Source of the DNA: a candidate division WOR-3 bacterium
GTDB lineage: Bacteria > Hydrothermota > Tepidihabitantia > B3-TA06
NCBI GenBank assembly: GCA_965649265.1
Contig: CBFGKC010000021.1
Coordinates: forward strand, 1-28,629
Reading direction: 5' to 3'
DNA: 28,629 nucleotides
Both the position numbers and the translations under genes were made by a program. The notes beneath the pieces were generated by a model, which was given only the letters and a program-made list of their open reading frames with translations, did no database searches and was not told the origin of the DNA. Of this stretch, positions 8,046 to 28,313 are shown piece after piece (the stretch's first letter is position 1; each line of letters begins with the position of its first letter).

Positions 8046-8684
8046 CTATTCCTGTTTCCCGACGAAGTTTATAATAACCTTTTTGATGTCCCAAAGGTGA
8101 TCGAGCTTCTCGTGGATCTCTTCGGCTATATGTGAAGCAAACTTGTGCTTTTCGGTAAGATCGAGGTCTATGGTGATTACCCCATCCTTCACGTCGAAAT
8201 CCCTCAATAGCTGCATGCGCACGATCGATGCCCCGGTCAGCGGGTTGAGGACGTTGCGCAGTTTTCGCAAAAGGACGTCCGGAGTCGTCGGGATCTTTTC
8301 CGCGAGACCGTGTTTTTCTTTCCACTGATCGATTGCGGAGCGCAGCGCGTCCACGGCAAGAACGGCGCAGTGCATCTTGACCGGCGGCAGCCCCTCCAAT
8401 TCTTCCGCGGCCTCCTTCCACCCTATCTTTTCGGCCTCTTCAATTGTCTTTCCCTTGACCATATCGGTGAGGATGGAACCGGTGGCGATATTGGAAGCAC
8501 ATCCAAAGCTCTCGAACTTGATATCGGTTATGATGTGAGTGGATTCGTCGACCTTGAGGGAAATCTTGAGCATGTCGCCGCAGGCAGGGCTGCCCTCCAT
8601 TGCCGTTGCGTCGGCGTCCTTAATTTCCCCTACGTTGTGCGGGTTTTTGAAATGCTCGATAACTTTTTTAGAATAAGGAAGCAC
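8046..8684 (-). CDS. iscU: Fe-S scaffold IscU/NifU-N fused to a C-terminal DUF59 (SufT/MIP18-like) domain
   Basis: HFKNPHNVG, PACGD, FGCAS, LPPVKMHC (three scaffold Cys plus the LPPVK motif); C-terminal LRNVLNPLTGASIVRMQLLRD..ITIDLDLT resembles DUF59. Confidence 0.9.
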   Translation of the reverse strand: MLPYSKKVIEHFKNPHNVGEIKDADATAMEGSPACGDMLKISLKVDESTHIITDIKFESFGCASNIATGSILTDMVKGKTIEEAEKIGWKEAAEELEGLPPVKMHCAVLAVDALRSAIDQWKEKHGLAEKIPTTPDVLLRKLRNVLNPLTGASIVRMQLLRDFDVKDGVITIDLDLTEKHKFASHIAEEIHEKLDHLWDIKKVIINFVGKQE

Positions 8685-8695
8685 TCTAACTCCTT

Positions 8696-9865
8696 TTATT
8701 CCTTGAATCCATTTTCGGGCGTGAGGGGAGATAGTTTTCGTAAATCTGCAACAACCTCCTTGAGAGCCTCCAGGGTCGAGGAAACCTCCTCGGGAGTGTT
8801 GAACCTCGAAAAGCTGAAGCGCATGGAACCGTGCGCCTGCTCGTGCGGTCTCCCCATCGCTAAAAGAACGTAGGAAGCTTCAAGGGCCTTGGAGAAACAT
8901 GCCGATCCAGTTGCCGCGGCGATGCCGCGCATATCGAGGTGCAGAAGTATGGATTCGCCTTCTATGAAATCGAACGTCACGTTGAGTATGTGCGGTGCGC
9001 CCTGATCGAGCGAACCGTTGAGGTGAACCCACGGAATTTCTCGTGCGATTCCTTCCCATAGCTTTCGTCTTAAACCGTCTATATACGAGATGTGCTCGGG
9101 ACGAACCATCGAGATGGCCTTGGCCATTCCGAAAGCGCCCGCGACATTTTCCGTACCCGGCCTGAGTTCATACTCATTGTATCCCCCGAACATGATGGGC
9201 GAGAGTTTGACTGATTTGCGTCGGTAAAGCGCTCCAATGCCTTTGGGGCCGTGAATCTTGTGGCCGGTAAGAGACGCAAGAGATACGTCCATCTTTTTAA
9301 CATCAAAAGGAACCTTGCCCCACCCCTGAGCGGCATCGGTGTGAAAAGGAATGTCTCGTGAGCCGCACATTTTACCTATCTCTTCGAGAGGCTGGATGGT
9401 TCCCACTTCGTGGTTGACGAGTTGGACCGTACAGAGCGCGGTACCAGGCACAAGCGCAGCCTCTAACTCGTCGAGTTTTACCCTGCCTTCGGAATCGACA
9501 CCTGCCTGAACCATTTCTACCCCCTCCTCCCCCAGTCCGCGAAGAACGTTCAGTACGGACTCGTGTTCTATGGCAGTTGTGACGACGCGGACCGGCTTCT
9601 TCAACGGACGCAGATAACCCAAAAGAGCCAGGTTGTTAGCCTCGGTGCCTCCGGATGTGAAGATTATTTCATCGGGCTCGGCGTTTATCGAACGAGCGAT
9701 CTCCGTTCTCGCCTGCTCGAGCTTATCTTTAGATTCAAGCGATGCCTGGTGTCCGAAGTGGCCGGACGGTGCGGCGTATTCATCGAGAAGAAGTGGACGC
9801 ATCTGCTCGAGGACCCATGGGTCCAGCCGGGTCGTGGTCGCATTATCGAAGTAAATCTCGTTCAT
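8696..9865 (-). CDS. iscS: cysteine desulfurase (IscS/NifS, group I)
   Basis: YFDNATTT, FTSGGTEANN, HTDAAQ, GHKIHGPKGIG (PLP Lys), RPGTEN, TGSAC catalytic Cys. Confidence 0.95.
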   Translation of the reverse strand: MNEIYFDNATTTRLDPWVLEQMRPLLLDEYAAPSGHFGHQASLESKDKLEQARTEIARSINAEPDEIIFTSGGTEANNLALLGYLRPLKKPVRVVTTAIEHESVLNVLRGLGEEGVEMVQAGVDSEGRVKLDELEAALVPGTALCTVQLVNHEVGTIQPLEEIGKMCGSRDIPFHTDAAQGWGKVPFDVKKMDVSLASLTGHKIHGPKGIGALYRRKSVKLSPIMFGGYNEYELRPGTENVAGAFGMAKAISMVRPEHISYIDGLRRKLWEGIAREIPWVHLNGSLDQGAPHILNVTFDFIEGESILLHLDMRGIAAATGSACFSKALEASYVLLAMGRPHEQAHGSMRFSFSRFNTPEEVSSTLEALKEVVADLRKLSPLTPENGFKE

Positions 9866-9867
9866 AT

Positions 9868-10308
9868 CTAGGACTTCGTTGCGCCGGAACCGATATCGTC
9901 ACATTTCACCGCTCTCGGAAGAAACCAACCAGAGCGCCGCAAACGCCTGTCAACCAATGTCAATGCGGCAAAATATACGATAACGGAAGAAAATATCATG
10001 ATTGCAGTAATCCAAACCTTGGAGGTAATGGCATTGCCGATAAACCACATTGCAATACCGAGCAGTATCGGACCTATAAACACGAGCAAGGAAGAGATTA
10101 TCGACGGTGCGGACGCGGTCGAAATCGTAACACCATCGCCTTCCTTGAGAGTGCCTTGCGCCCGCGCAATCAATACGCGACTCTTCCCGGCAGGAAAGCA
10201 CAAAGCATGCTGCCCGCACGATGCGCAGCCCCCGTGCTCGGGCATCTTGACTTTTACCAGAGGCCCTTCGATAGTCATGACCTCTCCGTATTCTTTAAAT
10301 TCCACCAT
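9868..10308 (-). CDS. rseC: RseC/MucC family membrane protein
   Basis: E.G.V..I.G...KV, CASCGQHALC cysteine motif, GD.V.I, two C-terminal TM helices. Confidence 0.8.
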   Translation of the reverse strand: MVEFKEYGEVMTIEGPLVKVKMPEHGGCASCGQHALCFPAGKSRVLIARAQGTLKEGDGVTISTASAPSIISSLLVFIGPILLGIAMWFIGNAITSKVWITAIMIFSSVIVYFAALTLVDRRLRRSGWFLPRAVKCDDIGSGATKS

Positions 10309-13122: not shown

Positions 13123-14986
13123 TTTCTTCTTGAGGGGTCGCTGCCTTCAGATGCCTGTAAAGCGCGAGAAGCGCTACAGGAGTAACACCGGAGATGCGTG
13201 ACGCCTGTCCCAGGGTTGTCGGCTTGATAAGATTGAACTTTTCAATGACTTCGTTTGAAAGACCCGGTACGACGGAGAAATCCAGGGTGTCAGGAATCGT
13301 AACTTTTTCGATGCGTTTAAAACGCTTGGCTTCATCGAGAGCCCTGTCAACATATCCCTTGTATTTTATTTCTATCTCAACTCTCTCGCGAACAAAAGGT
13401 GCCAGCTCCGAAAGCCCTTTGTCCAGTTCATCCATGTCGTTTATGTTTAATTGGGGACGCCTGAGAAGGTCTGCTATGCTTAGTTTTTCGGTTGTTGCTT
13501 CAACTCCATGTGATGCAAGGACCTTGTTTGTGCCGGTAATCTCGGGCCTGGTTTTTTCGAGTCTCTGAAGTGTTTCGCTGACCGCGGTTTCCACGGCCTC
13601 GACCTTGCGATAGTCTTTTTCTCGAAGAAGTCCTATGTCTTTGCCTATCTCGGAAAGTCGCACTGCGGCATTATCTTCGCGCAAGAGAAGCCGGTATTCC
13701 ACACGCGAGGTAAACATCCTGTAAGGTTCGTTTGTACCGCGCGTGACAAGGTCATCTATGAGTACGCCTATATACGCCTGATCCCGACGCAGTGTTAATG
13801 GAGATTCTCCTTTTACCCTCAGTGCGGCATTGATTCCAGCAATAAGCCCCTGAGCGGCAGCCTCCTCGTAGCCGGTCGTTCCGTTTATCTGCCCGGCAAG
13901 AAAAAGATCACGGATTTTCTTGGTCTCAAGCCATGCATAGAGCTCGGTAGGTTGAACGTAATCGTGCTCTACGGCATATCCCGGCCTGGTCATTTCAGCG
14001 TGTTCGAGCCCCGGCACGGAACGAACCATCCTGACCTGAACGTCCAGGGGGAGGCTTGTAGAAAGGCCGTTGGGATATATCTCGTGCGTGGAGATTCCCT
14101 CGGGTTCAATGAAAACACGGTGAGAATCCTTGTCCGCAAAGCGAACGACCTTATCTTCAATAGAAGGACAGTATCGAACTCCGGTTCCCTGTATTTGTCC
14201 TGTGTAGAGAGGCGATCGGCTGAGATTTTCCTCGATTATTTTATGCGTCTCCAGGGTAGTACGCGTAAGATAACAAAGAGCCTGGTTTTTTAGTTTTGCC
14301 TTGGTGAAAAAGCTAATACCGGGAGGGGGCTCCTCTCCGGGCTGGGGTTCCATTTTTTTGTAGTCAAGCGATCTTGCGTCAAGCCTAGGAGGCGTACCTG
14401 TTTTGAATCTGCCCAGCTCAAAGCCAAGAACCCTGAGGCTCTTAGCGAGAGAGTTCGAAGCATGATCCCCCAGCCTCCCCCCCGGGAAACTCTCTGCGCC
14501 GATGTGAAGCAACCCCGTGAGGAAGGTACCCGGAGCCACAACTACGGCTTTCGCCTTTATCCTTCCCGCCGCCCTCGTTTCGACACCCGCAACTCTTTCA
14601 TTTTCTACTAGCAAAGCTTCTACTTCGTCCTGCCAGAGGGACAGGTTCGATGTCTCCTCTAACACTCGCTTCGAGAAATCACGATACATGGCCTTGTCGC
14701 ATTGAATACGTGTGGATTGAACGGCAGGACCCTTGCTTTGATTCAATCTGCGAAAATGTATCCCGCACCGGTCGGCCAGGCGCCCTTGCAGGCCTCCAAG
14801 CGCGTCAAGTTCCCTGACAAGCTGGCTTTTCCCGAGGCCGCCGATCGCCGGGTTGCACGACATCTGACCGATGGTTTCCAAGTTCAAAGCGACAAGAAGG
14901 GTACGGCACCCCATACGGGCTGACGCATACGATGCCTCAATTCCCGCATGGCCTGCGCCTATGACAATGACGTCATAAGAAGTCAT
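13106..14986 (-). CDS. mnmG: tRNA U34 carboxymethylaminomethyl modification enzyme MnmG (GidA)
   Basis: [67 protein letters not shown]. Confidence 0.98.
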
Positions 14987-17388
14987 CAGAAAAGACCCTG
15001 CACAAGAAGATATATCATTACTCCTGCTAGAACCAGAAAGAGAAGGGCCGTGAGGATTTTAGTGAGACCGGCACGTCGTGTAAGGAAGGTCTGCAGGTGC
15101 TTCTCGGTCATTCCGAATCTGACAAGTATGAAAACTATCACAAGAGGAACAATGAAGGCGACGTTATACAGAATCAGATACAAAAAGGCCTTGCTTTTCA
15201 ACTCGGCTACCTGGGCGACATACACCAGTGTCGGCAGGTAAACCTGGCCGGTACACACAAGTTCGAAAAGGGAAACAAAGAATCCTGTCACAACCGCGCC
15301 GACGACGAATCCGCCCAATGTGGTTTTTGACCTTATCATCTTGTTCATCCGTTTACGAATCCTGTCCGGCATCTTCAATGCCATTCGTTCGCCCTCACCC
15401 CGTTTCAGAAGCAGGTAATCTCTAAAAGAAAGAATAGCAAGAACAAGGAGGAACAAAACGGTTGCACCGAAAATTACCCTCGAAACCCAGCGAAGAACTG
15501 TAAGAAGCGCAAGAATCTGATAGGCCAGTAGTCCTAGAATGAGGTAGGTAAGAAAAACAGACAGGATGAACGGTATAGCCACCCACAACACCTTGCGCCG
15601 CTCGACGCCCAGGACTGACAGATAGGTGATAAAGAATATGAGTGTCGCAAAGGCGCAAGGGTTGATGCCGTCTATGAGACCAGCCCCCAGTATGGGAAGA
15701 ATGCTGAACCCCTCAAATTGCCTAATAATTTGTTCCTTGCCCCTGCTGCGCAGTGAATCAATCTTTTCCCACGGGATCGACTTACCGCGCTGAGACTCTA
15801 CGAGATTCTTGAGCGAGACGAGGGACACATCATCCCTGACAAGATAACCACTGCCTACAAAGATAGCCGGAGTGAGAAGTCGCTCTTCTTTTTTTAGAGA
15901 ATACGCTTCTGCGAAAGCGGCCAGAAGCGTTTTGGAAGCTGTGTCCTCAACGCTGTAGATTTTTACCGAGAGAGTCGAATCTTCGGAAGCAATGGCACGT
16001 AAAAGAGAACGGGCCCTGTCGCACTCCTTACAGCCGAAGGTAGAAAAAAAGACTAGCTCCTGACCGCCGCTTTTAGTCAGGGAGGTGTCGACAGGAACGG
16101 TACTGGTGTCGACATTAAGAACAAGAGACCGACCCGCGTATAAGGATGAATCCTTGCTCGAGTATTTGGGTCGGATGGAAAGAAGAAGTTTCTCAAGGCT
16201 TGCCGTCACCTCTTCCTCGCCGCTGAGAACCATGCCCTCAAAAAAAAGAACGGGGATATCGTTATCGCGATCGTTGGCAGCGGCTTCCATCTTTTCAAGT
16301 AAAGCATACTCGTTGGATTCGTTAATGTCATGAAGCTTGACCGAAAAAAGACCGGGATGTTTTTTTATGAGTTGTGGTAGAAAAACCTTAATCGTTCTCA
16401 TGCAGTGAGGGCAATCGGGCGCATAAAAGAGATCTATGAGCACGGGAGAATGTTTTGAAGAAGAAATCGTTTGCGTGTCATGCGGAATTAACGTCGAGTC
16501 CAGCTCAACGCTGTCTTCCTCAAGATATGGTGCAATCATTCTCTGGATTGAAGGCTCTTCCGGATAATCGGTTGTCAGCGCCTTCACCTCGTTGGTCTCA
16601 AGCGAGAGAGATGGGGGAACGGCGACTCGACTGAAGCGGGCAATCCCGAAGTGCTTAGCATCCGCGCCTGCACCGAGGATATAGGCATTGCCAGATTTCT
16701 CAGGCGAAGGAAGGTTTGCCGGCGTGTGTCCGGAGATGATGATGTCGAGTTCCGGGAACTCCTTTGCTATTTCTCTTTCCTCATCAATTCCGAGGTGTGA
16801 GAGAAGAACTATAACGTCACCCTTGCTTTTGAGCATAGGCATTGCCGCGCGAAGTTCGGCTGCGGGATCGGTGGCCTTCACCCCCCCGAGTTTTGATGCA
16901 TCGTAGAAAAGGAATGCGCCCTTGTTGATGAGAGACGTGATGACAATCTTCAAGCCTCCGCGCTCCTTTACGACATACGGCTGGACGAGCCGTTCGCCGT
17001 TCCGGTAGACATTGAGGGAAATAAAGGGCAGCCTGTTTTTCATCCTTTTCTCGAAGAAATCGTACCCGTCAACGAATTCCTGGTCGCCGAGGGCCACGGC
17101 ATCGAGCGGTATCCTGGAATAGGCCTCGACGAATACCGAATCCTTCAACCTTGACGGGAAAGGCGCAAGCAGATCGCCCGCATCGAGTACGAGGATGGAT
17201 GGGTCCGTGCTTTTAGCCGAATTGACAGCACTTGATCTTCGTGGAAGTCCGCCGTACGGATCGTCCGGGCAGCGACACCAGGTTATGGTACCGTTCGGTG
17301 AGGCGATGTAAAAGATGTTGAACTCCTGGGATTGGAGGACCGACACCGCAACAGTCACGAGGAGAATCCCCACTAATTTTCTCAACAT
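14986..17388 (-). CDS. exported multidomain protein: UshA-like metallophosphoesterase (CxC) + two thioredoxin folds + CcdA/DsbD-type TM domain
   Basis: Signal peptide; [28 protein letters not shown]; FYAPDCPHC; FSTFGCKEC; [11 protein letters not shown] and ELVCTGQVY in a multi-TM C-terminus; TGATG overlap with mnmG. Confidence 0.8.
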
Positions 17389-19352: not shown

Positions 19353-20660
19353 CTATTCTTTTTTTTCAGGGGACTCGCTGCGGAGAAGCCCCTCCACTCT
19401 CGCCAGCTCTCGCCTCTGCCTGGTCAGTATCTCGTCTCTGAAGTCCTCGGGAATACCCTGGTCGCGTTCTATCTGGGCAAGCAAGTTGGAGATACTCGCA
19501 CACCTCTGATCAAGTTCAGCAATCCTTGCCGAGTGTCTGGAATCTGGTTTTGGTCTTTTCCTTCGGATAAATCCCCAAAGGTAGTAAGCGGCAAGAGGCA
19601 GGATTAGCGTCGCGCCTGCCCCTGCGATCCAGAGCCACCACGACCCCGGGAAAAGGAGATAGAGCATACTGAAAAAAAGTCCTGCCACGGCGACGAGAAC
19701 CACCCACGCGGCAAAAAGCCTCTCCTGTCTGAATGACAGTCTCTTGAGTTCCGAAAGAGTCGCCTTGACGGTGTCCTCCTCCCTTATCGAAAAGATATCG
19801 GTAAGTCTTCTGCTCGTCGGATCGAAATCCTCGGAGAGCAAAGCGAACTCTGACGTTTCGGAAAGTCTAGAAGCCAAAAAACGAGGGGACTGGAAGCGTC
19901 TCTCGCGTATTATGAAGTGATTCACACGACGCAGGAACCGGGCGAAATCCTGAGTGTTTCCGGAATGACGAACATCCTCCATGCGCTCAAGCCAGCGGCG
20001 AAGGGAGAGTCTGTGCCACGAGGCGGCTCCCTCGCGATAGACCCAGCGTTCAATCTCTCGTATGGCTTCTTCTTCGTCAACCTTGAGGTAGTATACACCC
20101 TGGTGCATAAAAATATCACCGGACGCGGAAAGCTTTTCTCCCGAATCAGGCAAGAGACCAATCTTGATGATGGCGGTGCCGTGTGTAAATCCGAAATCCA
20201 GTTCACCTGCAATTCTTTCAGGTGTTATGCCGGTCAGAAAGAGAGTGGAATCTGCCGCTTCGGAATGACGAAGTTCTTCGGGGTCGTGTGAGGAGAGCGA
20301 GGCCTCTATGAAACGCGTAAGGGCCTGGGAAAACTCACGCCGGTGCCACAGAAGCCCCTGGTTGATATCGAGAGTGCTCTTCGAAAGATCGAGATCAAGC
20401 CGCACGAACCCTCCGCCGTCCTCAAATAGCCTGACGGTAAGCGTGTACTCTATCTCGTCGGCAAGGCTGCCTTTGTCGAGAATGAAAACGAGCGAACGTC
20501 GGCCCGCAAAACGCTCCCAGCCCGGATTGCCGAGTGAAATTGATAGATGCTGGGAAAGCCTGTAGAGATCTGCCTCCGAACCAAGAGAGAAAACGGCAAG
20601 CTCGACAATGCGCTTTGGTGTGGGAGGCTCCTTCTCCCGAAACATATCTAAAAACCCCAC
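19353..20660 (-). CDS. hypothetical membrane protein (two C-terminal TM helices plus coiled coil)
   Basis: 435-aa ORF, GTG start with SD GGAGG; no family recognised. Confidence 0.75.
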   Translation of the reverse strand: MGFLDMFREKEPPTPKRIVELAVFSLGSEADLYRLSQHLSISLGNPGWERFAGRRSLVFILDKGSLADEIEYTLTVRLFEDGGGFVRLDLDLSKSTLDINQGLLWHRREFSQALTRFIEASLSSHDPEELRHSEAADSTLFLTGITPERIAGELDFGFTHGTAIIKIGLLPDSGEKLSASGDIFMHQGVYYLKVDEEEAIREIERWVYREGAASWHRLSLRRWLERMEDVRHSGNTQDFARFLRRVNHFIIRERRFQSPRFLASRLSETSEFALLSEDFDPTSRRLTDIFSIREEDTVKATLSELKRLSFRQERLFAAWVVLVAVAGLFFSMLYLLFPGSWWLWIAGAGATLILPLAAYYLWGFIRRKRPKPDSRHSARIAELDQRCASISNLLAQIERDQGIPEDFRDEILTRQRRELARVEGLLRSESPEKKE

Positions 20661-20845: not shown

Positions 20846-21628
20846 GTGAGTCCAAAAAAAAGGAAACTTGCCAGGAAAAAAGAGATAGCTGAAAAGTGGT
20901 GGATGATTATCGTTCTTGCGGGATTCCTGGTGATAGCCGGAAGCCTTGGAGCCGGGTTGATTTTCGGCACCAGGCAGCCGCTTGTACTCACTGAGGGGGA
21001 AACGACTTCTCTGGCTTTCGGGTCAGGGGATTCGCTTTACCTTCACAAGTTCCGCCTGACTTTTTATCCGGAGTCGCAATCGATCAAGGACTATCAAGCG
21101 CTAGTGGCATCACGTATCAACGGAAGACTGAAACTGGACACCGTTTCCCTCAATCATCCCTTGAAAAGAGGTTTCAAACGAATCTATCTTGGCGGCTACG
21201 GCCTCAGCAAGGATTCCGTCTATCTGCGTTTTGTTCTGCGCACGCCGTGGCTGGATACCATTCCATACGAATTCCCTCCGGCAGGCGTAATAAACGACGA
21301 GCGTTTTCCGATGATTATTTCCTTCGAGAACTTTCGCATCGATCGCTCGCAGCTGTGGCCATTACCCGAGGTGCCCGAGGTAAAGGTAAAGATCATTGAG
21401 CCGGGTAAGCTGATTGCGGAAAAAAAGATGCGGGCCCCGGACTCTCTCGTGTTCAATGATTACGTTCTTTATTTTGACGGCATAAGATTCAGACCGACCG
21501 CCACTTTCATGTGTGTATACGATGTAAGCTGGATTGCCGCCCTTGCAGGCGCGGCAATCATCCTTGCCGGGTTCGTTCTTGGATATGCGATAAGGGCGAA
21601 AAAGAAATTCGGGAGCCCCCATGTTTGA
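20846..21628 (+). CDS. resB: ResB/CcsB-like cytochrome c biogenesis protein (short, divergent)
   Basis: TM, L.EGE, F.L.FY..IKDY, VSLNHPL...F.RIY, C-terminal D...W....G TM; overlaps a ccsA-like gene. Confidence 0.7.
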   Translation: MSPKKRKLARKKEIAEKWWMIIVLAGFLVIAGSLGAGLIFGTRQPLVLTEGETTSLAFGSGDSLYLHKFRLTFYPESQSIKDYQALVASRINGRLKLDTVSLNHPLKRGFKRIYLGGYGLSKDSVYLRFVLRTPWLDTIPYEFPPAGVINDERFPMIISFENFRIDRSQLWPLPEVPEVKVKIIEPGKLIAEKKMRAPDSLVFNDYVLYFDGIRFRPTATFMCVYDVSWIAALAGAAIILAGFVLGYAIRAKKKFGSPHV

Positions 21629-22514
21629 ACCACTTAAGCTCTTTGCCTTCGAGAAAACGGCGCTCGTGATCATCGAAGGTCTTTACCTCATTTCTGTAAT
21701 CTTCTACTCCCCACCATCCTTGAGCACAAAAAAAATCCTAAAGGCCCTCGGCCTTGCATTTCATATCCTTGCCGCACTCCTGACCGCCGGCTTTCTCGTG
21801 ATGAGGTTTTTCGTAACCGGCCACGCACCGTTTGTCGTTTTTTACGAGGCCATAGTCTTTCTTGCCTTTTCCGTATCTTTCGCGTTTCTGATACTTTCCT
21901 GGGGCAAGGGCGTTTTCGGCTTCGGCAGAGGTGCTGCAGGTCTATCATGGATCCTAACTCTCATAGCTCTGATTCAAAGGCTTGTAAACCAGTCGGGCAC
22001 TTACCCCCGTTACCTCATTCCCCAGCTTTCAAGCTCTTTATTCGAGCCGCACGCCGCAACTGCATTTCTTGCATACGCCTGCTTCACACTCGCTTTTTTT
22101 GCATCGTTAACATCGCTGATTTCAACAAAGAACGATACAAAGCTTGAGCGTCGCTCCGTAGCCGAGTTCTTCTTATGGCCAGGGGTGATCCTTTATACCG
22201 TATCTCTTATTTTCGGAGCTGCGGCCGCACAAAAAGCCTGGGGTTCCTGGTGGATGCGGGAGCCGAAATGGATTTCGTCCCTTGCCGTATGGCTCTTGTT
22301 CGTCACTGCCCTGGTACTGCGCAGCAGCATGGGGAAGGAAACGATTGGAGACGATACCCAGCCCCACGGGAAAAATAGAGAAGAGCAACGAGGACCGGTG
22401 CCAGGGCGGCAAAAGGGAAGAGGCGTCCTTTTCAGCTGGCTTGTCATTATGGGTTTTGTGGTGATGTTACTGACCTTCCTAGCCGCGAACTCGGGTTCAC
22501 ACAAGTTCCTATAA
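21621..22514 (+). CDS. ccsA: CcsA/ResC-like heme attachment membrane protein (non-canonical WWD domain)
   Basis: GHAP...YE, LIPQLSS...PH....LAY, WGSWWMREPK, C-terminal GSHKF. Confidence 0.85.
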   Translation: MFEPLKLFAFEKTALVIIEGLYLISVIFYSPPSLSTKKILKALGLAFHILAALLTAGFLVMRFFVTGHAPFVVFYEAIVFLAFSVSFAFLILSWGKGVFGFGRGAAGLSWILTLIALIQRLVNQSGTYPRYLIPQLSSSLFEPHAATAFLAYACFTLAFFASLTSLISTKNDTKLERRSVAEFFLWPGVILYTVSLIFGAAAAQKAWGSWWMREPKWISSLAVWLLFVTALVLRSSMGKETIGDDTQPHGKNREEQRGPVPGRQKGRGVLFSWLVIMGFVVMLLTFLAANSGSHKFL

Positions 22515-22528
22515 AATTCTTCTTACAC

Positions 22529-22557
22529 TTGACAGCTTTTGCATATCGGCGTAGTAT
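22529..22557 (+). promoter_or_regulatory. sigma70-type promoter, leaderless
   Basis: TTGACA-17 bp-TAGTAT, ATG 5 nt later at 22563. Confidence 0.7.
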
Positions 22558-22562
22558 TTACC

Positions 22563-24695
22563 ATGCTAAAGGGCGAGAAAAATGAGATAGAAAAAATTAT
22601 CGATGATATCCAAGATGATCCATACGACCAAAATTACGACAAGGCTCTACCTCTTATTATCAAGCATTTAAAACCGTTCCAGGAAGCTCTCAAAGGAATT
22701 AGTTCCTCGCAGGCAAAAAAATGGTCTATTCTCGCATTTGACTTAAAAGAAAAAGAATACTACGCGCATGCTCAGGCGATTTACAGCCGGCTAAAAGAAA
22801 TTAAACCCGACGATCCATCGATTCACCAAAGCCTTGCTGAAATCTCGGAGAAACTAGGAGATCACGAAGCAGCGGAAAAGGAGTACAGACAATGCCTAAA
22901 ACTCGATCCCGGATACACATCAATTTCTGATAACCTGGCTGAGGTTCTTGAGAACAGAGGAAAAATAAGAGAAGCTGTAAAAATCTACGAAAAAGAAGCG
23001 AAGCGGGACCCTTCCAGAGCAAGTGAAAAATATGGAAAGATAGGCAGTCTTCTTCAAAGAAACGGAAATATCAGGGAAGCCGAACGAGCATATCGTCAAG
23101 CTGTAAGGGAATCAAAAAGCATTACTAACTACAGGGACTTGGGGTGGTTTTTAAGTAAGCAAAAAAGATTAATTGATGCGGAAAAAATCTACAAGGAAGG
23201 AATCAAAGATAATCCATTAAGTGCAAGCCTGTACGGAGACCTAGCGAGGATACTATGGAGTCTTCGTAAAAATGATGAGGCTGAATGGTATTACCGGCAG
23301 GCCATAAGGCTCGGCAGACATCCTGTAGCCTCGTATTATTACCTTGCCGTCTTGCTGAAAGAGGCGGGAAAAAAAGACGAATCTTTGGCTGTCGTAACAG
23401 AAGCGTTAAAACGATACGCCAAGTCAGATGTACTCCACGTACCTCAACATTATTACTATGCGCGTCTGTTAGAAGAAAACGGTGAGTTGGAGAGAGCCCG
23501 AAAGAAGTATCAGAAAGCCATTGAAAAAAACCCCATGGGGCCGACCGCATACAATGCCCTGGCTGCATTGCTTGAGAAGGAGGGGGGGGGAGGAAAGCTT
23601 TATCAAGCCGAAGCACTCTATCGCAAAGCTGATTTGCTCGGCCAGGGGGAGCCTAAATTCAAATTCGATCTGGCGAGATTTCTTGAGAAAAAAATTGTAA
23701 AGGAGAAAAATGTCGACAACAAGGAAATCGATGAAGTAGAACGTTTATATAGACAGGTAATCGAAGCCGATCCCACCAATTCTGCCGCATACAACAACCT
23801 GAGCAATATCCTGAGAAGGAAAAGAGAATATTCGGATGCCAGGGAAGTCTTGAATAAGGCTTTAAAACATCTTAAAGAACTCCCTTCGGAGAGCCAGACA
23901 AAAGTTGTAACAAGCACATGCTGGTTGATCTGCGAAACGGCATGTAACTTATTTCAATTAGGTGATTTCAGGGCAACCCGAAAATCAGTGGATTCTTTAC
24001 TGGGTCTTATCAAACGTTACCGGTCTCCTGTGGAACCAAAGAACGACCTGCTATCGCAAGCTTATTTCCTGTTGGGTTCCGCAGATTTGCAGCAAAGACA
24101 TTCTTACCGGGCAATCAAAAACCTGCAAAAAGCGGCGGTCTTGAATCCACAGGATGCTTCGATTCGATACAACCTTGCTCAGGCTTACTACTGGGCAAAC
24201 AAAAACAGGGAAGCCGTACAAGTCCTTGAGGATGCAATCCAGCTAAAAAGCAAAGAGAACAAACAATCTAAAGAAGTAAGGAGAAAATATCCTAAGGCAG
24301 ATGAATTGCTTGACACGATACATAAACTTAAAGAACCAATTCGCCTGAAGTGGTGGCAGCCCTTGCCCTTTTCTTTGATATCTGTTGGATGGATCATCTT
24401 TGCCTTGTTCAAAAATAGTTGGTTTCCGGATTACGACAAGGAACTTATGCCATACCTGTTTGGCGTGACAATTATCGTTTCCGTTTTGTTGCTCATCTAT
24501 CCCTTGATCGAGAATTTAACATTGAAAGCCAAAACAGGAAACATAGAAGCTGAACTCGCTATGAAGTCTGTTCTCGGGAATGAATCGAAAACTTACACGA
24601 TTGAGAATCCACGTATAATCCCTGAAGCACAGGAAGAAAAAATAAAAAAGCCTAAAGCACAAAAAGACGAAATAGACGAAATAGATGTGATATAA
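22563..24695 (+). CDS. tetratricopeptide-repeat protein with two C-terminal TM helices
   Basis: Many TPR-like repeats (LA..L...G...EA...Y..AI...P, AYNNL); start moved from TTG 22539 to ATG 22563 because the promoter overlaps the former. Confidence 0.88.
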   Translation: MLKGEKNEIEKIIDDIQDDPYDQNYDKALPLIIKHLKPFQEALKGISSSQAKKWSILAFDLKEKEYYAHAQAIYSRLKEIKPDDPSIHQSLAEISEKLGDHEAAEKEYRQCLKLDPGYTSISDNLAEVLENRGKIREAVKIYEKEAKRDPSRASEKYGKIGSLLQRNGNIREAERAYRQAVRESKSITNYRDLGWFLSKQKRLIDAEKIYKEGIKDNPLSASLYGDLARILWSLRKNDEAEWYYRQAIRLGRHPVASYYYLAVLLKEAGKKDESLAVVTEALKRYAKSDVLHVPQHYYYARLLEENGELERARKKYQKAIEKNPMGPTAYNALAALLEKEGGGGKLYQAEALYRKADLLGQGEPKFKFDLARFLEKKIVKEKNVDNKEIDEVERLYRQVIEADPTNSAAYNNLSNILRRKREYSDAREVLNKALKHLKELPSESQTKVVTSTCWLICETACNLFQLGDFRATRKSVDSLLGLIKRYRSPVEPKNDLLSQAYFLLGSADLQQRHSYRAIKNLQKAAVLNPQDASIRYNLAQAYYWANKNREAVQVLEDAIQLKSKENKQSKEVRRKYPKADELLDTIHKLKEPIRLKWWQPLPFSLISVGWIIFALFKNSWFPDYDKELMPYLFGVTIIVSVLLLIYPLIENLTLKAKTGNIEAELAMKSVLGNESKTYTIENPRIIPEAQEEKIKKPKAQKDEIDEIDVI

Positions 24696-24715: not shown

Positions 24716-25267
24716 ATGAGCATCCTCTTCAATCCCCGAAAGTTTTTTGACGAGATTGAGCGGTCTCACCAGTTGTCGCTGCTTCTCATCGTTTTGAGAT
24801 GGGGGGCAACGGCATCCTTCGTAATTCTGCCGTTGTGGCTTATGGAGTCGGGGCCGTTCGTGAAACCATGGCTACCCATCCCCTCAGATACCTATTACTT
24901 CTGGGAACTTATCTACCTTCTCCCCTACGGTGCGCTCCTTACACTCGCGATATCGGGTTTTTCTACACTTTGCCTGCGAATGTGCGGCCGCGCCGGTGCC
25001 TCTTTCAAAGAGGTTTTCGCCATTGTATCTTACGGACTTTTCTTGCCTTGGGTGCCTTGCCTGATATGGGACGTATTCCTCGTTTTTACTCATCATTGGT
25101 CGCTTTCCTGGGCTGTGCCCGTGCATTCGGCGGCACTCGTTGCCGAAGCCTTCCTTTACGCCTGGGGTTTCAAGAGAGTGTTCGGCACACCCTTGTGGAA
25201 GGCGGTCCTAATAGCGATTCTGAACACCATCCTGTTCTGGGGCCTGTCGGCGATTATTGTAAGATAA
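24716..25267 (+). CDS. Yip1-family membrane protein
   Basis: ILFNPRKFFDEI N-terminus, G.GASFKEVF..VSY, about 5 TM helices; SD AAAGGTG. Confidence 0.75.
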   Translation: MSILFNPRKFFDEIERSHQLSLLLIVLRWGATASFVILPLWLMESGPFVKPWLPIPSDTYYFWELIYLLPYGALLTLAISGFSTLCLRMCGRAGASFKEVFAIVSYGLFLPWVPCLIWDVFLVFTHHWSLSWAVPVHSAALVAEAFLYAWGFKRVFGTPLWKAVLIAILNTILFWGLSAIIVR

Positions 25268-27821: not shown

Positions 27822-28313
27822 ATGAAAGCCAGTCCCAAACAGTCGCTAGAGGACCTTTTCGCAATGGCCGTAAAGGCCGAGATTGAAGCCCAGGAAATAT
27901 ATTCCAACATCGCTAACCATACGAAAAACTTTGTCTTAAAAGAGAAGATGCAGTTTCTGGCGGGCGAGGAGAAGAAACATGAGGCCATACTCCGCGGCCT
28001 GTTCAAGCAGAAGTTTGCCGCCAAAGAGCTCGTGCTGCCGAATGAGACGATGGCTCCCGTTCCCGCATGGAACCCCGCCGAGGGTATGGCGATAAGTGAC
28101 GTACTCAAAGCCGCTATGCAGACCGAGTTGGATTCAAACTTATTCTACCACGAGATGGCCGGACGAGTAGATGAACCCAAGGAAAAAGCCATGTTCAAGT
28201 ATCTCGCGGCCATGGAACAGACGCATTATCAATTGCTTGAGGTCGAGTACCACGCGGCGACCGAGATAGAAGATTACGATCGTTTTGACCCGGCCGTGCA
28301 CTTTGGAGCCTAG
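27822..28313 (+). CDS. ferritin-like/rubrerythrin-family diiron protein
   Basis: AVKAEIEAQEIY, EEKKH, AMQTE..FY, MEQTH (two ExxH motifs); SD AAGGAGG. Confidence 0.9.
   Translation: MKASPKQSLEDLFAMAVKAEIEAQEIYSNIANHTKNFVLKEKMQFLAGEEKKHEAILRGLFKQKFAAKELVLPNETMAPVPAWNPAEGMAISDVLKAAMQTELDSNLFYHEMAGRVDEPKEKAMFKYLAAMEQTHYQLLEVEYHAATEIEDYDRFDPAVHFGA

Follow-up and report, generated by a model that had tools for sequence, protein, structure and literature searches.

The stretch of DNA analysed here (the window) is 28,629 nt long, contig CBFGKC010000021.1 of a candidate division WOR-3 bacterium, and all coordinates below are positions in it. Our subject is a pair of adjacent genes on its forward strand, encoding a ResB/CcsB-like and a CcsA-like protein, i.e. 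relatives of the two parts of CcsBA, the System II cytochrome c synthase. The open reading frames (ORFs) were read again, and the coordinates, the 260-residue ResB-like product, the two intact frames and their 8-nt overlap (21621-21628) came out as an earlier, sequence-only reading of this DNA had given them. In the family to which the pair belongs, the two histidines that hold haem within the membrane are replaced and the two periplasmic histidines are kept, and the machine probably does a different job there. Table 1 summarizes the features.

Table 1. Genes, codons and segments of the window that are referred to in the text.
Feature	Position	Strand	Remark
800-aa fusion protein	14986-17388	-	UshA-like phosphoesterase, two thioredoxin-like domains, CcdA/DsbD-like membrane domain
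435-aa protein, no known family	19353-20660	-	two C-terminal membrane segments; divergent from the ResB-like gene
ResB/CcsB-like gene	20846..21628	+	260 aa, GTG start; PF05140 at 4.1e-10
L24 codon, CcsB-side membrane haem His position (H. hepaticus H83)	20915..20917	+	profile alignment
CcsA-like gene, WWD family	21621..22514	+	297 aa, ATG start; PF01578 at 8.1e-18
H48 codon ('LAFH'), helix 2	21762..21764	+	family-specific invariant His
H68 codon ('TGHAPF'), periplasmic loop motif common to ordinary CcsA	21822..21824	+	aligns with 'SEHAPW' of 7s9y
H144 codon, P-His1 ('FEPH')	22050..22052	+	aligns with H761 of 7s9y
WWD-like loop WGSWWMREPKW, residues 207-217	22239..22271	+	aligned with the 7s9y WWD loop
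V232 codon, CcsA-side membrane haem His position (H. hepaticus H858)	22314..22316	+	family profile vs 7s9y
Charged insertion, about 30 residues (residues 235-270 of the CcsA-like protein)	22323..22430	+	loop between helices 7 and 8
H294 codon, P-His2 ('GSHKF')	22500..22502	+	aligns with 'SGLH' of CcsBA 25vk
718-aa TPR-repeat protein	22539-24695	+	C-terminal hydrophobic segments; separates the CcsA-like from the Yip1-like gene, in this genome alone
183-aa polytopic membrane protein	24716..25267	+	candidate third component; Yip1-like by feature search only

The pair represents true but very divergent homologues of ResB (CcsB) and CcsA; the homology is real but weak. The CcsA-like protein scores 65.3 bits against Cytochrom_C_asm (PF01578, cut-off 29.9) and 79.1 bits against the CcsA equivalog TIGR03144 of NCBIfam, which is under the cut-off of 187.6. 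The ResB-like protein scores 39.5 bits against PF05140 (cut-off 24.6), covers only positions 142-278 of the 486 in that profile, and has no NCBIfam match. PF01578 and PF05140 have one match each in the 2.74-Mb genome (96.4% complete), and these are the members of this pair. A phmmer search of PDB with the single CcsA-like sequence returned no match, and 7s9y, the CcsBA of Helicobacter hepaticus, was reached by the family profile only (E 6.4e-15), as was the second solved CcsBA, 25vk, at E 2.4e-12; the profile of the ResB-like protein returned nothing from PDB. The AlphaFold2 model of the CcsA-like protein, built from an input alignment of 60 sequences, has a mean predicted local distance difference test score (pLDDT) of 89.7 and a predicted template-modelling score of 0.89, and contains eight long predicted membrane helices. 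Its top Foldseek match is again 7s9y (E 2.9e-6, TM-score 0.64), and VIA-align superposes it on the CcsA half of that chain (residues 619-901) with Z 24.1 and a root-mean-square deviation (rmsd) of 2.8 A over 263 residues. The charged insertion of Table 1, in a loop that is presumably cytoplasmic, is of low complexity, is modelled with low confidence (pLDDT 53-60) and is carried in the alignment by the four closest proteins alone (P0001-P0004).

The variant marks one family of WOR-3/'Stahlbacteria' genomes. When 1.84 billion cluster representatives were searched with the CcsA-like protein, only three matches were below 1e-30 and the next stood at 2.4e-17. Among 272 species genomes of the phylum, an orthologue was found in all 10 relatives of the window's family, which span four genera (E 7e-29 to 7e-88), while the best match outside the family was at 7.6e-18. 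A FastTree phylogeny of 141 rows unites the 13 family proteins in a single clade (Shimodaira-Hasegawa-like support 99), whose stem measures 0.78 substitutions per site; internal branches have a median length of 0.125 and reach 0.795 at most. The backbone of this tree is poorly resolved (70 of 138 branches are open), and no sister group is claimed.

The membrane histidines are named by subunit here because the numbering in the literature is inconsistent: the transmembrane histidine TM-His1 is the CcsB-side residue in PMC6299221 (2018), while Table 1 of PMC11322641 has H858 as TM-His1 and H83 as TM-His2. The CcsB-side histidine is H83 of H. hepaticus in PDB numbering and H77 in the older numbering. 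For the CcsA side we used an alignment of 161 proteins (12 near relatives and the 150 best cluster representatives, one being common to both) that gave 165 rows, in which 13 proteins form the family set and 152 rows lie outside it. By profile alignment, H858 of 7s9y ('ILHLR') falls on V232 ('LVLR') of the CcsA-like protein. The H858 column holds His in 134 of the 165 rows, a gap in 8 and another residue in 23. No family protein has His there (0/13; Ala in 6, Val in 4, Leu in 2 and Ile in 1), and the site is likewise non-His in all 10 family genomes whose gene spans it. On the CcsB side, L24 stands in a column that is Leu in all nine family ResB-like proteins of the alignment, which is anchored by six canonical sequences only; the residue aligned to it is His in 'LLHLSF' of the fused CcsBAs P0046, P0083 and P0142, in 'IVFHLSM' of two WOR-3 ResBs and in 'LLLH83ASF' of 7s9y. 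Both membrane-haem histidines of CcsBA are replaced by aliphatic residues across the family. The sequence-only reading had claimed their absence from the window by equivalences assigned by eye, and profile alignments to 7s9y and 25vk now support those equivalences.

All 18 CcsA-type genes of the phylum outside the family keep the H858-equivalent histidine together with the canonical WGxYWxWDPKE; the nineteenth such locus is of the CcmC type. Fourteen of the 18 are in genomes without an ALAD match, and therefore haem auxotrophy alone does not remove the histidine. Ten of the 152 non-family rows also have no His in the H858 column, for example P0030, P0048, P0099, P0113, P0124, P0130, P0137 and P0156, with V, F, G, P, M, I, L and Y. 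These CcsA-type rows mostly carry a canonical or near-canonical WDPKE, and alignment slips are possible for some of them. P0030 has 'ALVLR' in common with the window protein.

Both histidines on the periplasmic side are retained, as had been claimed for the window. The column of the first (P-His1, H144) is His in 13/13 family proteins and in all 145 filled non-family rows, and the second (P-His2, H294) is His in 13/13 family proteins. The H68 column is His in 97 of the 165 rows. The loop between the two periplasmic ligands reads WGSWWxW[E/N/T]PK in the family consensus against the canonical WGxYWxWDPKE. Residue 210, canonically Tyr, is Trp in all 13 family proteins; position 214 is never Asp but Glu (8), Asn (4) or Thr (1); and E217 is lost in all 13. 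In the GAxWA motif, W202 has become Ala in 9/13 and A203 has become Ser in 10/13. The pair thus departs from the WWD consensus WGxxWxWDxKE and from GAxWA, with W, G, W and K retained. The earlier statement that the WWD motif was rewritten holds family-wide for Tyr to Trp, for Asp to Glu, Asn or Thr, for the lost Glu and for the lost Trp of GAxWA. It does not hold for the Arg of WMRE. R213 is a single-base change (codon CGG, 22257-22259) private to the window sequence. All 12 remaining family proteins have Trp at position 213, which is Trp in 156 rows out of 165, and homologues can therefore not be collected by a 'WxRE' motif as had been proposed. The same position is Pro in both genomes of genus g4. 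W207 is also variable, with C, F, L or R in some members of the family: it is Cys in genome G097, Phe in G100, and R, L or F in close relatives of the window.

We further compared the family with the 26 positions that show at least 85% conservation over the 152 non-family rows. Most are retained in the family, including R62, P70, E76, L132, L136, H144, Y152, G199, G208, W211, K216, T285 and N290. The conserved positions that the family systematically replaces are W202, A203, D214, E217 and H232, all of them within or next to the two haem sites. Over the 13 family proteins 38 columns are invariant, among them H48, H144 and H294, and the family-invariant residues that are rare elsewhere include P31, P32, H48, W110, E142, W186 and A230. 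The H48 column is His in 13/13 family proteins and in 11/11 family genomes, but in only 4 of the 105 filled non-family rows.

In the ResB-like protein, a beta-rich periplasmic domain of about 185 residues is flanked by single membrane helices at the N-terminus and the C-terminus. Its AlphaFold2 model (pLDDT 78.4) has helices at residues 3-40 and 228-254 with strands in between, and Foldseek gave two significant matches, 7s9y and 7s9z (E 7.8e-7 and 6.5e-6), with a global TM-score of just 0.20. The nine aligned relatives fall into two groups by length: four, the genus-level clade of the window, have 260-263 residues, and five have 299-335 residues with two additional N-terminal hydrophobic segments, in which no His is conserved. 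The earlier description of a short ResB without the N-terminal membrane segments is thus right for the window's genus (4/9) and not for the other 5/9. In this genome the two helices are really absent, since the frame upstream of 20846 is closed (the open frame has 261 aa) and the 186-nt gap to the next gene contains no listed forward-strand ORF. In CcsBA the first two helices appear to cover the membrane haem site, judging from a figure legend of PMC11322641 in which they are hidden to show the ligands. A motif 'RWH' was found at the start of the ResB helix in 4/9 relatives. Its histidine, in the longer ResB-like proteins, was considered as the canonical membrane histidine and rejected, because it aligns with the helix-edge 'TRHVW' of a WOR-3 ResB which also bears 'VFHLS'.

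The ResB-CcsA adjacency is kept in all 8 family loci examined, and the overlapping arrangement is conserved. The ratio of nonsynonymous to synonymous substitution rates (dN/dS) was calculated by the Nei-Gojobori method over five genomes of genus g2. Between genera, synonymous sites have reached saturation, and so the window's own lineage is outside this test. The 10 genome pairs gave 0.14-0.29 for the CcsA-like and 0.10-0.29 for the ResB-like gene. The neighbouring genes gave 0.13-0.19 (Yip1-like, 6 pairs) and 0.10 (rubrerythrin, 1 pair). These ratios indicate that the pair is kept under purifying selection in the family and is not decaying. Decay, to be recognised by private substitutions and a dN/dS near 1, had been named as what would overturn the sequence-only reading; instead, the histidine losses are family-wide. 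A promoter/terminator scan of the DNA gave about as many sites as shuffled sequences did (8 against 6.0 +/- 2.7, and 11 against 6.8 +/- 2.7).

The genomic background was considered as well. All 11,188 ORFs of at least 60 aa in the genome were scanned for CxxCH; at 96.4% completeness, the absences reported here are not proof. Only 34 ORFs have the motif, the only one with two copies is a class I tRNA synthetase, and no recognisable cytochrome c is among the 34. From the 18 with at least 140 aa, none belongs to a cytochrome family, 11 belong to other families and 7 to no family; three of these seven are inside longer ORFs and four are stand-alone, by eye without a signal-peptide-like start. From the 16 shorter ones, 14 are inside longer ORFs and the other two are ribosomal protein L31 and YidD. 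Whole-genome family searches, each of which gave matches in named control genomes, found no ALAD, ferrochelatase, cytochrome bd subunit I, HemN_C, Ni_hydr_CYTB, HmuY or HemS (hemA was not searched for), and HemW is not recognisable in the genome. The inventory of haem and CxxCH genes suggested by the sequence-only reading therefore turned up neither ALAD nor ferrochelatase, and no recognisable CxxCH cytochrome. The same absences extend to the relatives. ALAD was found in 0/10 family relatives compared with 22/272 genomes in the phylum. Of the five cytochrome c families searched for, PF13442 was found in 0/10 (37/272) and PF09699 in 0/10 (23/272), and PF00034, PF03264 and PF14537 each in 0/11 family genomes. 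The genome has one strong match to a FecCD-type permease and two genes with a B12-binding domain. We considered that the pair might be a corrinoid importer; the two B12-binding-domain genes are present, but so is the ordinary FecCD-type permease, which weakens the idea. As for the phylum as a whole, 11 of the 69 WOR-3 genomes with any CcsA-like match have an ALAD match too; canonical System II in apparent tetrapyrrole auxotrophs seems to be common there, and several such genomes carry cytochrome c domains. A survey of WOR-3 reports a cytochrome c-dependent chain in 16 metagenome-assembled genomes of one subgroup only, and its main text does not contain the word 'heme' (PMC12542636).

Among the neighbouring genes, the one for the 183-aa membrane protein is a candidate third component. 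It lies directly 3' of the CcsA-like gene in six genomes of genera g1 and g2 (G100, G093, G094, G095, G097 and G098), and on different contigs from the pair in genus g4. The protein is present in 9/10 family relatives as well as in this genome, against 1/261 other genomes of the phylum, and has a mean column identity of 83%. Nothing useful came from Pfam, while a language-model search gave a Yip1 lead (PF04893 on 39% of the best cluster, score 0.97). This Yip1-like protein may be a partner of the pair, although shared inheritance inside a single family does not count as independent evidence for that. It is 81% identical between this genome and G100, compared with 54% for the CcsA-like protein, which is among the less conserved at the locus.

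The sequence-only reading had also linked the pair to a CcdA-thioredoxin fusion, and this link was rejected. The 800-aa fusion protein has a signal-peptide-like start, a UshA-like part that scores 130 bits against NF041198 (cut-off 275) and thioredoxin-like motifs CPHC and CKEC, and it is syntenic in G097 and G098. Its part with the two thioredoxin-like domains and the CcdA domain (residues about 310-795) is a class-wide feature, found in 103/132 genomes of the class and in 16/16 and 30/31 genomes of two sister families in which the CcsA-like protein had no match. Matches to the phosphoesterase head occur in the window's family and at least two others (f2, f5). The position of the 435-aa gene is conserved in G094, G097, G098 and G102. 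Elsewhere in the window, a cluster of NifU-like, cysteine desulfurase and RseC/MucC-family genes (8046-10308, reverse strand) and a rubrerythrin gene (27822-28313, forward strand) fit an anaerobic lifestyle rich in iron-sulfur proteins.

We account for these observations, at a probability of roughly 40%, by a System II derivative that has lost the cytoplasmic haem-loading site and the substrates but kept a CcmC-like periplasmic ligand pocket. The pair would descend from the System II cytochrome c synthase (ResB/CcsB and CcsA) by lineage-specific neofunctionalisation. In the ancestor of one WOR-3 ('Stahlbacteria') family, the haem-loading site on the cytoplasmic side would have been dismantled, with both axial histidines turned into aliphatic residues, and the two N-terminal ResB helices would have been lost later in the window's genus. 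The side facing the periplasm would have been retained, i.e. P-His1, P-His2, the core of the Trp-rich loop and the ResB-like beta domain. Since the organism seems to lack both endogenous haem and CxxCH apocytochromes, such a complex would no longer export the one to the other. It may rather work in the manner of CcmC: a planar ligand, most likely scavenged haem or another metallo-tetrapyrrole, would sit at the membrane's outer face, held between both periplasmic histidines, and be presented or passed on, with the ResB-like domain as a cap and the co-inherited Yip1-like membrane protein as a possible partner. The repurposing that the sequence-only reading saw in the coordinated losses is thus partly supported. 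The family-wide loss, the selection and the fitting genome background speak for that idea, while the example of CcmCD and the residue H48 weaken it.

Several points weigh against this explanation. The loss of the membrane ligands alone would not rule out haem transport, as the case of CcmCD suggests. The gained H48, together with the H55 present in 8/13 family proteins, could be a relocated ligand on helix 2. In the model, H48 is predicted to lie in the inner leaflet, about 7-11 residues from the positively charged and presumably cytoplasmic end of helix 37-66, and V232 would be 4-6 residues from the cytoplasmic end of helix 215-238; these depths are taken from helix boundaries, not from coordinates. 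To judge from the substitutions in the alignment, the WWD loop is under less constraint in the family than in ordinary CcsA, unlike a strictly conserved haem pocket, and the private W213R of the window could impair the pocket. The four stand-alone CxxCH ORFs without a Pfam family may be single-haem proteins, and the cytochrome census of the ten relatives covered five Pfam families and is not exhaustive. Lastly, no haem-using or haem-importing gene was found among those searched for, which gives the organism no obvious reason to handle haem.

Alternatively, the pair could still be a transmembrane haem transporter, possibly even a synthase, that works without the canonical ligands, which we regard as rather unlikely. 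It could operate either as a four-helix channel without axial ligation or through the relocated histidines H48 and H55 on helix 2, with imported haem, an acceptor that has no CxxCH or went undetected and, in some genera, a histidine at the cytoplasmic edge of the ResB helix ('RWH', in 4/9 relatives). For CcmCD, haem transport is reported to proceed without axial ligands, ligation being not needed (PMC13141917), and the haem channel has been mapped biochemically (PMC12077264). H48 was gained exactly in the clade that lost H232. H55 is one helical repeat above it on the same face; ordinary CcsA proteins frequently have a polar residue in this column (H 17, N 12, Q 8), and 7s9y has His. The core helices superpose on 7s9y at an rmsd of 2.8 A, and the FecCD permease could import the haem. 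But H55 is Thr in the window's clade, where the histidine at the ResB edge is not conserved either, and the window's genus has lost the two ResB helices that go with the membrane haem site. Moreover, the genome searches found no acceptor, cytoplasmic haem source or chaperone, and the CcsBA variants without membrane histidines are reported to lose haem binding and function (PMC6299221, PMC11322641). A function independent of haem is doubtful too, but stands as the more credible of these two alternatives: the pair could be a membrane regulator or adaptor, for which HemX of Staphylococcus aureus is a precedent (PMC5801465), or H48, H144 and H294 could bind a metal ion or another ligand that is not a tetrapyrrole. 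The eight targeted genome searches without a sign of haem metabolism, the relaxed constraint on the WWD tryptophans and the long stem branch, which suggests a change of function, are in line with it. Against this stand the identity of the most strictly kept residues, the two that ligate periplasmic haem in every characterised WWD protein, and the ResB partner with its translational coupling, retained in all family loci examined. A regulator like HemX would have no haem biosynthesis to control here, and nothing positive points to another ligand.

That the pair is a decaying relic of System II after the loss of the cytochromes is highly improbable, and for the family it is largely refuted. In its favour, the genome has no recognisable substrate, the window's clade has private changes at conserved tryptophans (W213R, and W207 to R, L or F in close relatives), a low-complexity insertion and lost ResB helices, and the CcsA-like protein is less conserved towards G100 than the Yip1-like one. 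Nevertheless, the frames are intact in all 10 related genomes of four genera, dN/dS is 0.10-0.29 in genus g2, three key histidines are among the 38 invariant columns and the overlapping gene order is conserved. The window's own copy, with its W213R, insertion and truncated ResB, could still be in decay. At the other extreme, and improbable as well, the ResB-like, CcsA-like and Yip1-like proteins could form the first WWD machine outside cytochrome c maturation, one that works outside-in by capturing a tetrapyrrole in the periplasm and handing it off, with the old cytoplasmic loading site deleted and a ladder of histidines, H48 and H55, built on helix 2. Its ligand would be haem, or a corrinoid for B12-dependent enzymes, in a host that would make no tetrapyrroles and have no cytochromes.

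CcsBA serves as the chief model for the passage of haem through membranes, and its set of four histidines is regarded as universal. The natural ResB/CcsA lineage described here has both membrane ligands replaced, the acidic residues of its WWD loop rewritten and a membrane histidine gained, and it has stayed under purifying selection in organisms without apparent haem synthesis or cytochromes. The family is therefore a natural experiment on whether the CcsBA scaffold can work without axial ligation, as reported for CcmCD, and on the further roles that WWD proteins may have. It also calls for caution with annotation: in WOR-3 and similar uncultured lineages, the label 'cytochrome c biogenesis protein' is not evidence of respiration.

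When compared to known systems, the pair is most like CcsBA/ResB-ResC (H. hepaticus, 7s9y and 7s9z). Both have the two-gene order of ResB and CcsA with overlapping frames, the eight-helix CcsA fold, P-His1, P-His2, the Trp-rich loop and the ResB motif around 'FRLTFYP...SLNHPL'. The differences are that the pair is without both membrane histidines, the D and E of WDPKE and the Trp of GAxWA, that its ResB periplasmic domain has only about 185 residues, that the TIGR03144 score is far under the cut-off, and that its host is without a recognisable CxxCH cytochrome and without ALAD. According to one review, all CcsBA proteins possess both membrane histidines (PMC10663686). In the published accounts of CcsBA, all four histidines are needed, the membrane pair holds haem near the cytoplasmic face, and without that pair haem fails to reach the WWD site (PMC6299221, PMC11322641, PMC10663686). 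Because each of these histidines is needed according to that work, the pair lacks two defining features of CcsBA. No description of such a CcsBA/WOR-3 variant was found in the literature; supplementary alignments, for example Table S1 of PMC10663686, could hold exceptions.

The eight N-terminal helices of CcmF, the System I synthase, also superpose on the model (6zmq, Z 22.1, rmsd 3.5 A, 249 residues). However, CcmF has a membrane haem b bound by two membrane histidines, as described in PMC10663686. Those ligands are missing in the pair, and the TIGR00353 score is 26.7 bits (cut-off 569). HemX of Bacillus and Staphylococcus, compared by description only, is likewise a short CcsA-like membrane protein kept without c-type cytochromes, and is encoded by a stand-alone gene within a haem-biosynthesis (hemA...) operon. 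In the window, the CcsA-like gene is instead coupled to a ResB-like gene, in a genome without ALAD. The S. aureus HemX, a PF01578 member in a host without c-type cytochromes, is reported to control the abundance of glutamyl-tRNA reductase (PMC5801465).

The last comparison is with CcmC, which together with CcmD transports haem in System I and loads CcmE. Sequence places the protein with CcsA and not with CcmC: the family lies among CcsA-type sequences in the tree, and the score against TIGR01191 is 34 bits compared to a cut-off of 186. The protein has eight helices rather than six, its loop reads EPKW and not DPRLT, and it has a ResB-like partner; no CcmF was found, the single PF01578 match being the pair's own, and CcmD and CcmE were not searched for. 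Nevertheless, the core helices 5-8 (model residues 130-297) superpose on 7f02_C by VIA-align with Z 11.9 and an rmsd of 3.8 A over 139 residues. The parts that the family retains, four core helices, the loop and the periplasmic pair of histidines, are those that all WWD proteins have in common. CcmC is described as a four-helix membrane core with a WWD loop, two periplasmic histidines and no membrane histidine (PMC10663686), and the pair has the same complement at these sites: a periplasmic pair of histidines flanking the WWD loop, and none of the membrane ligands.

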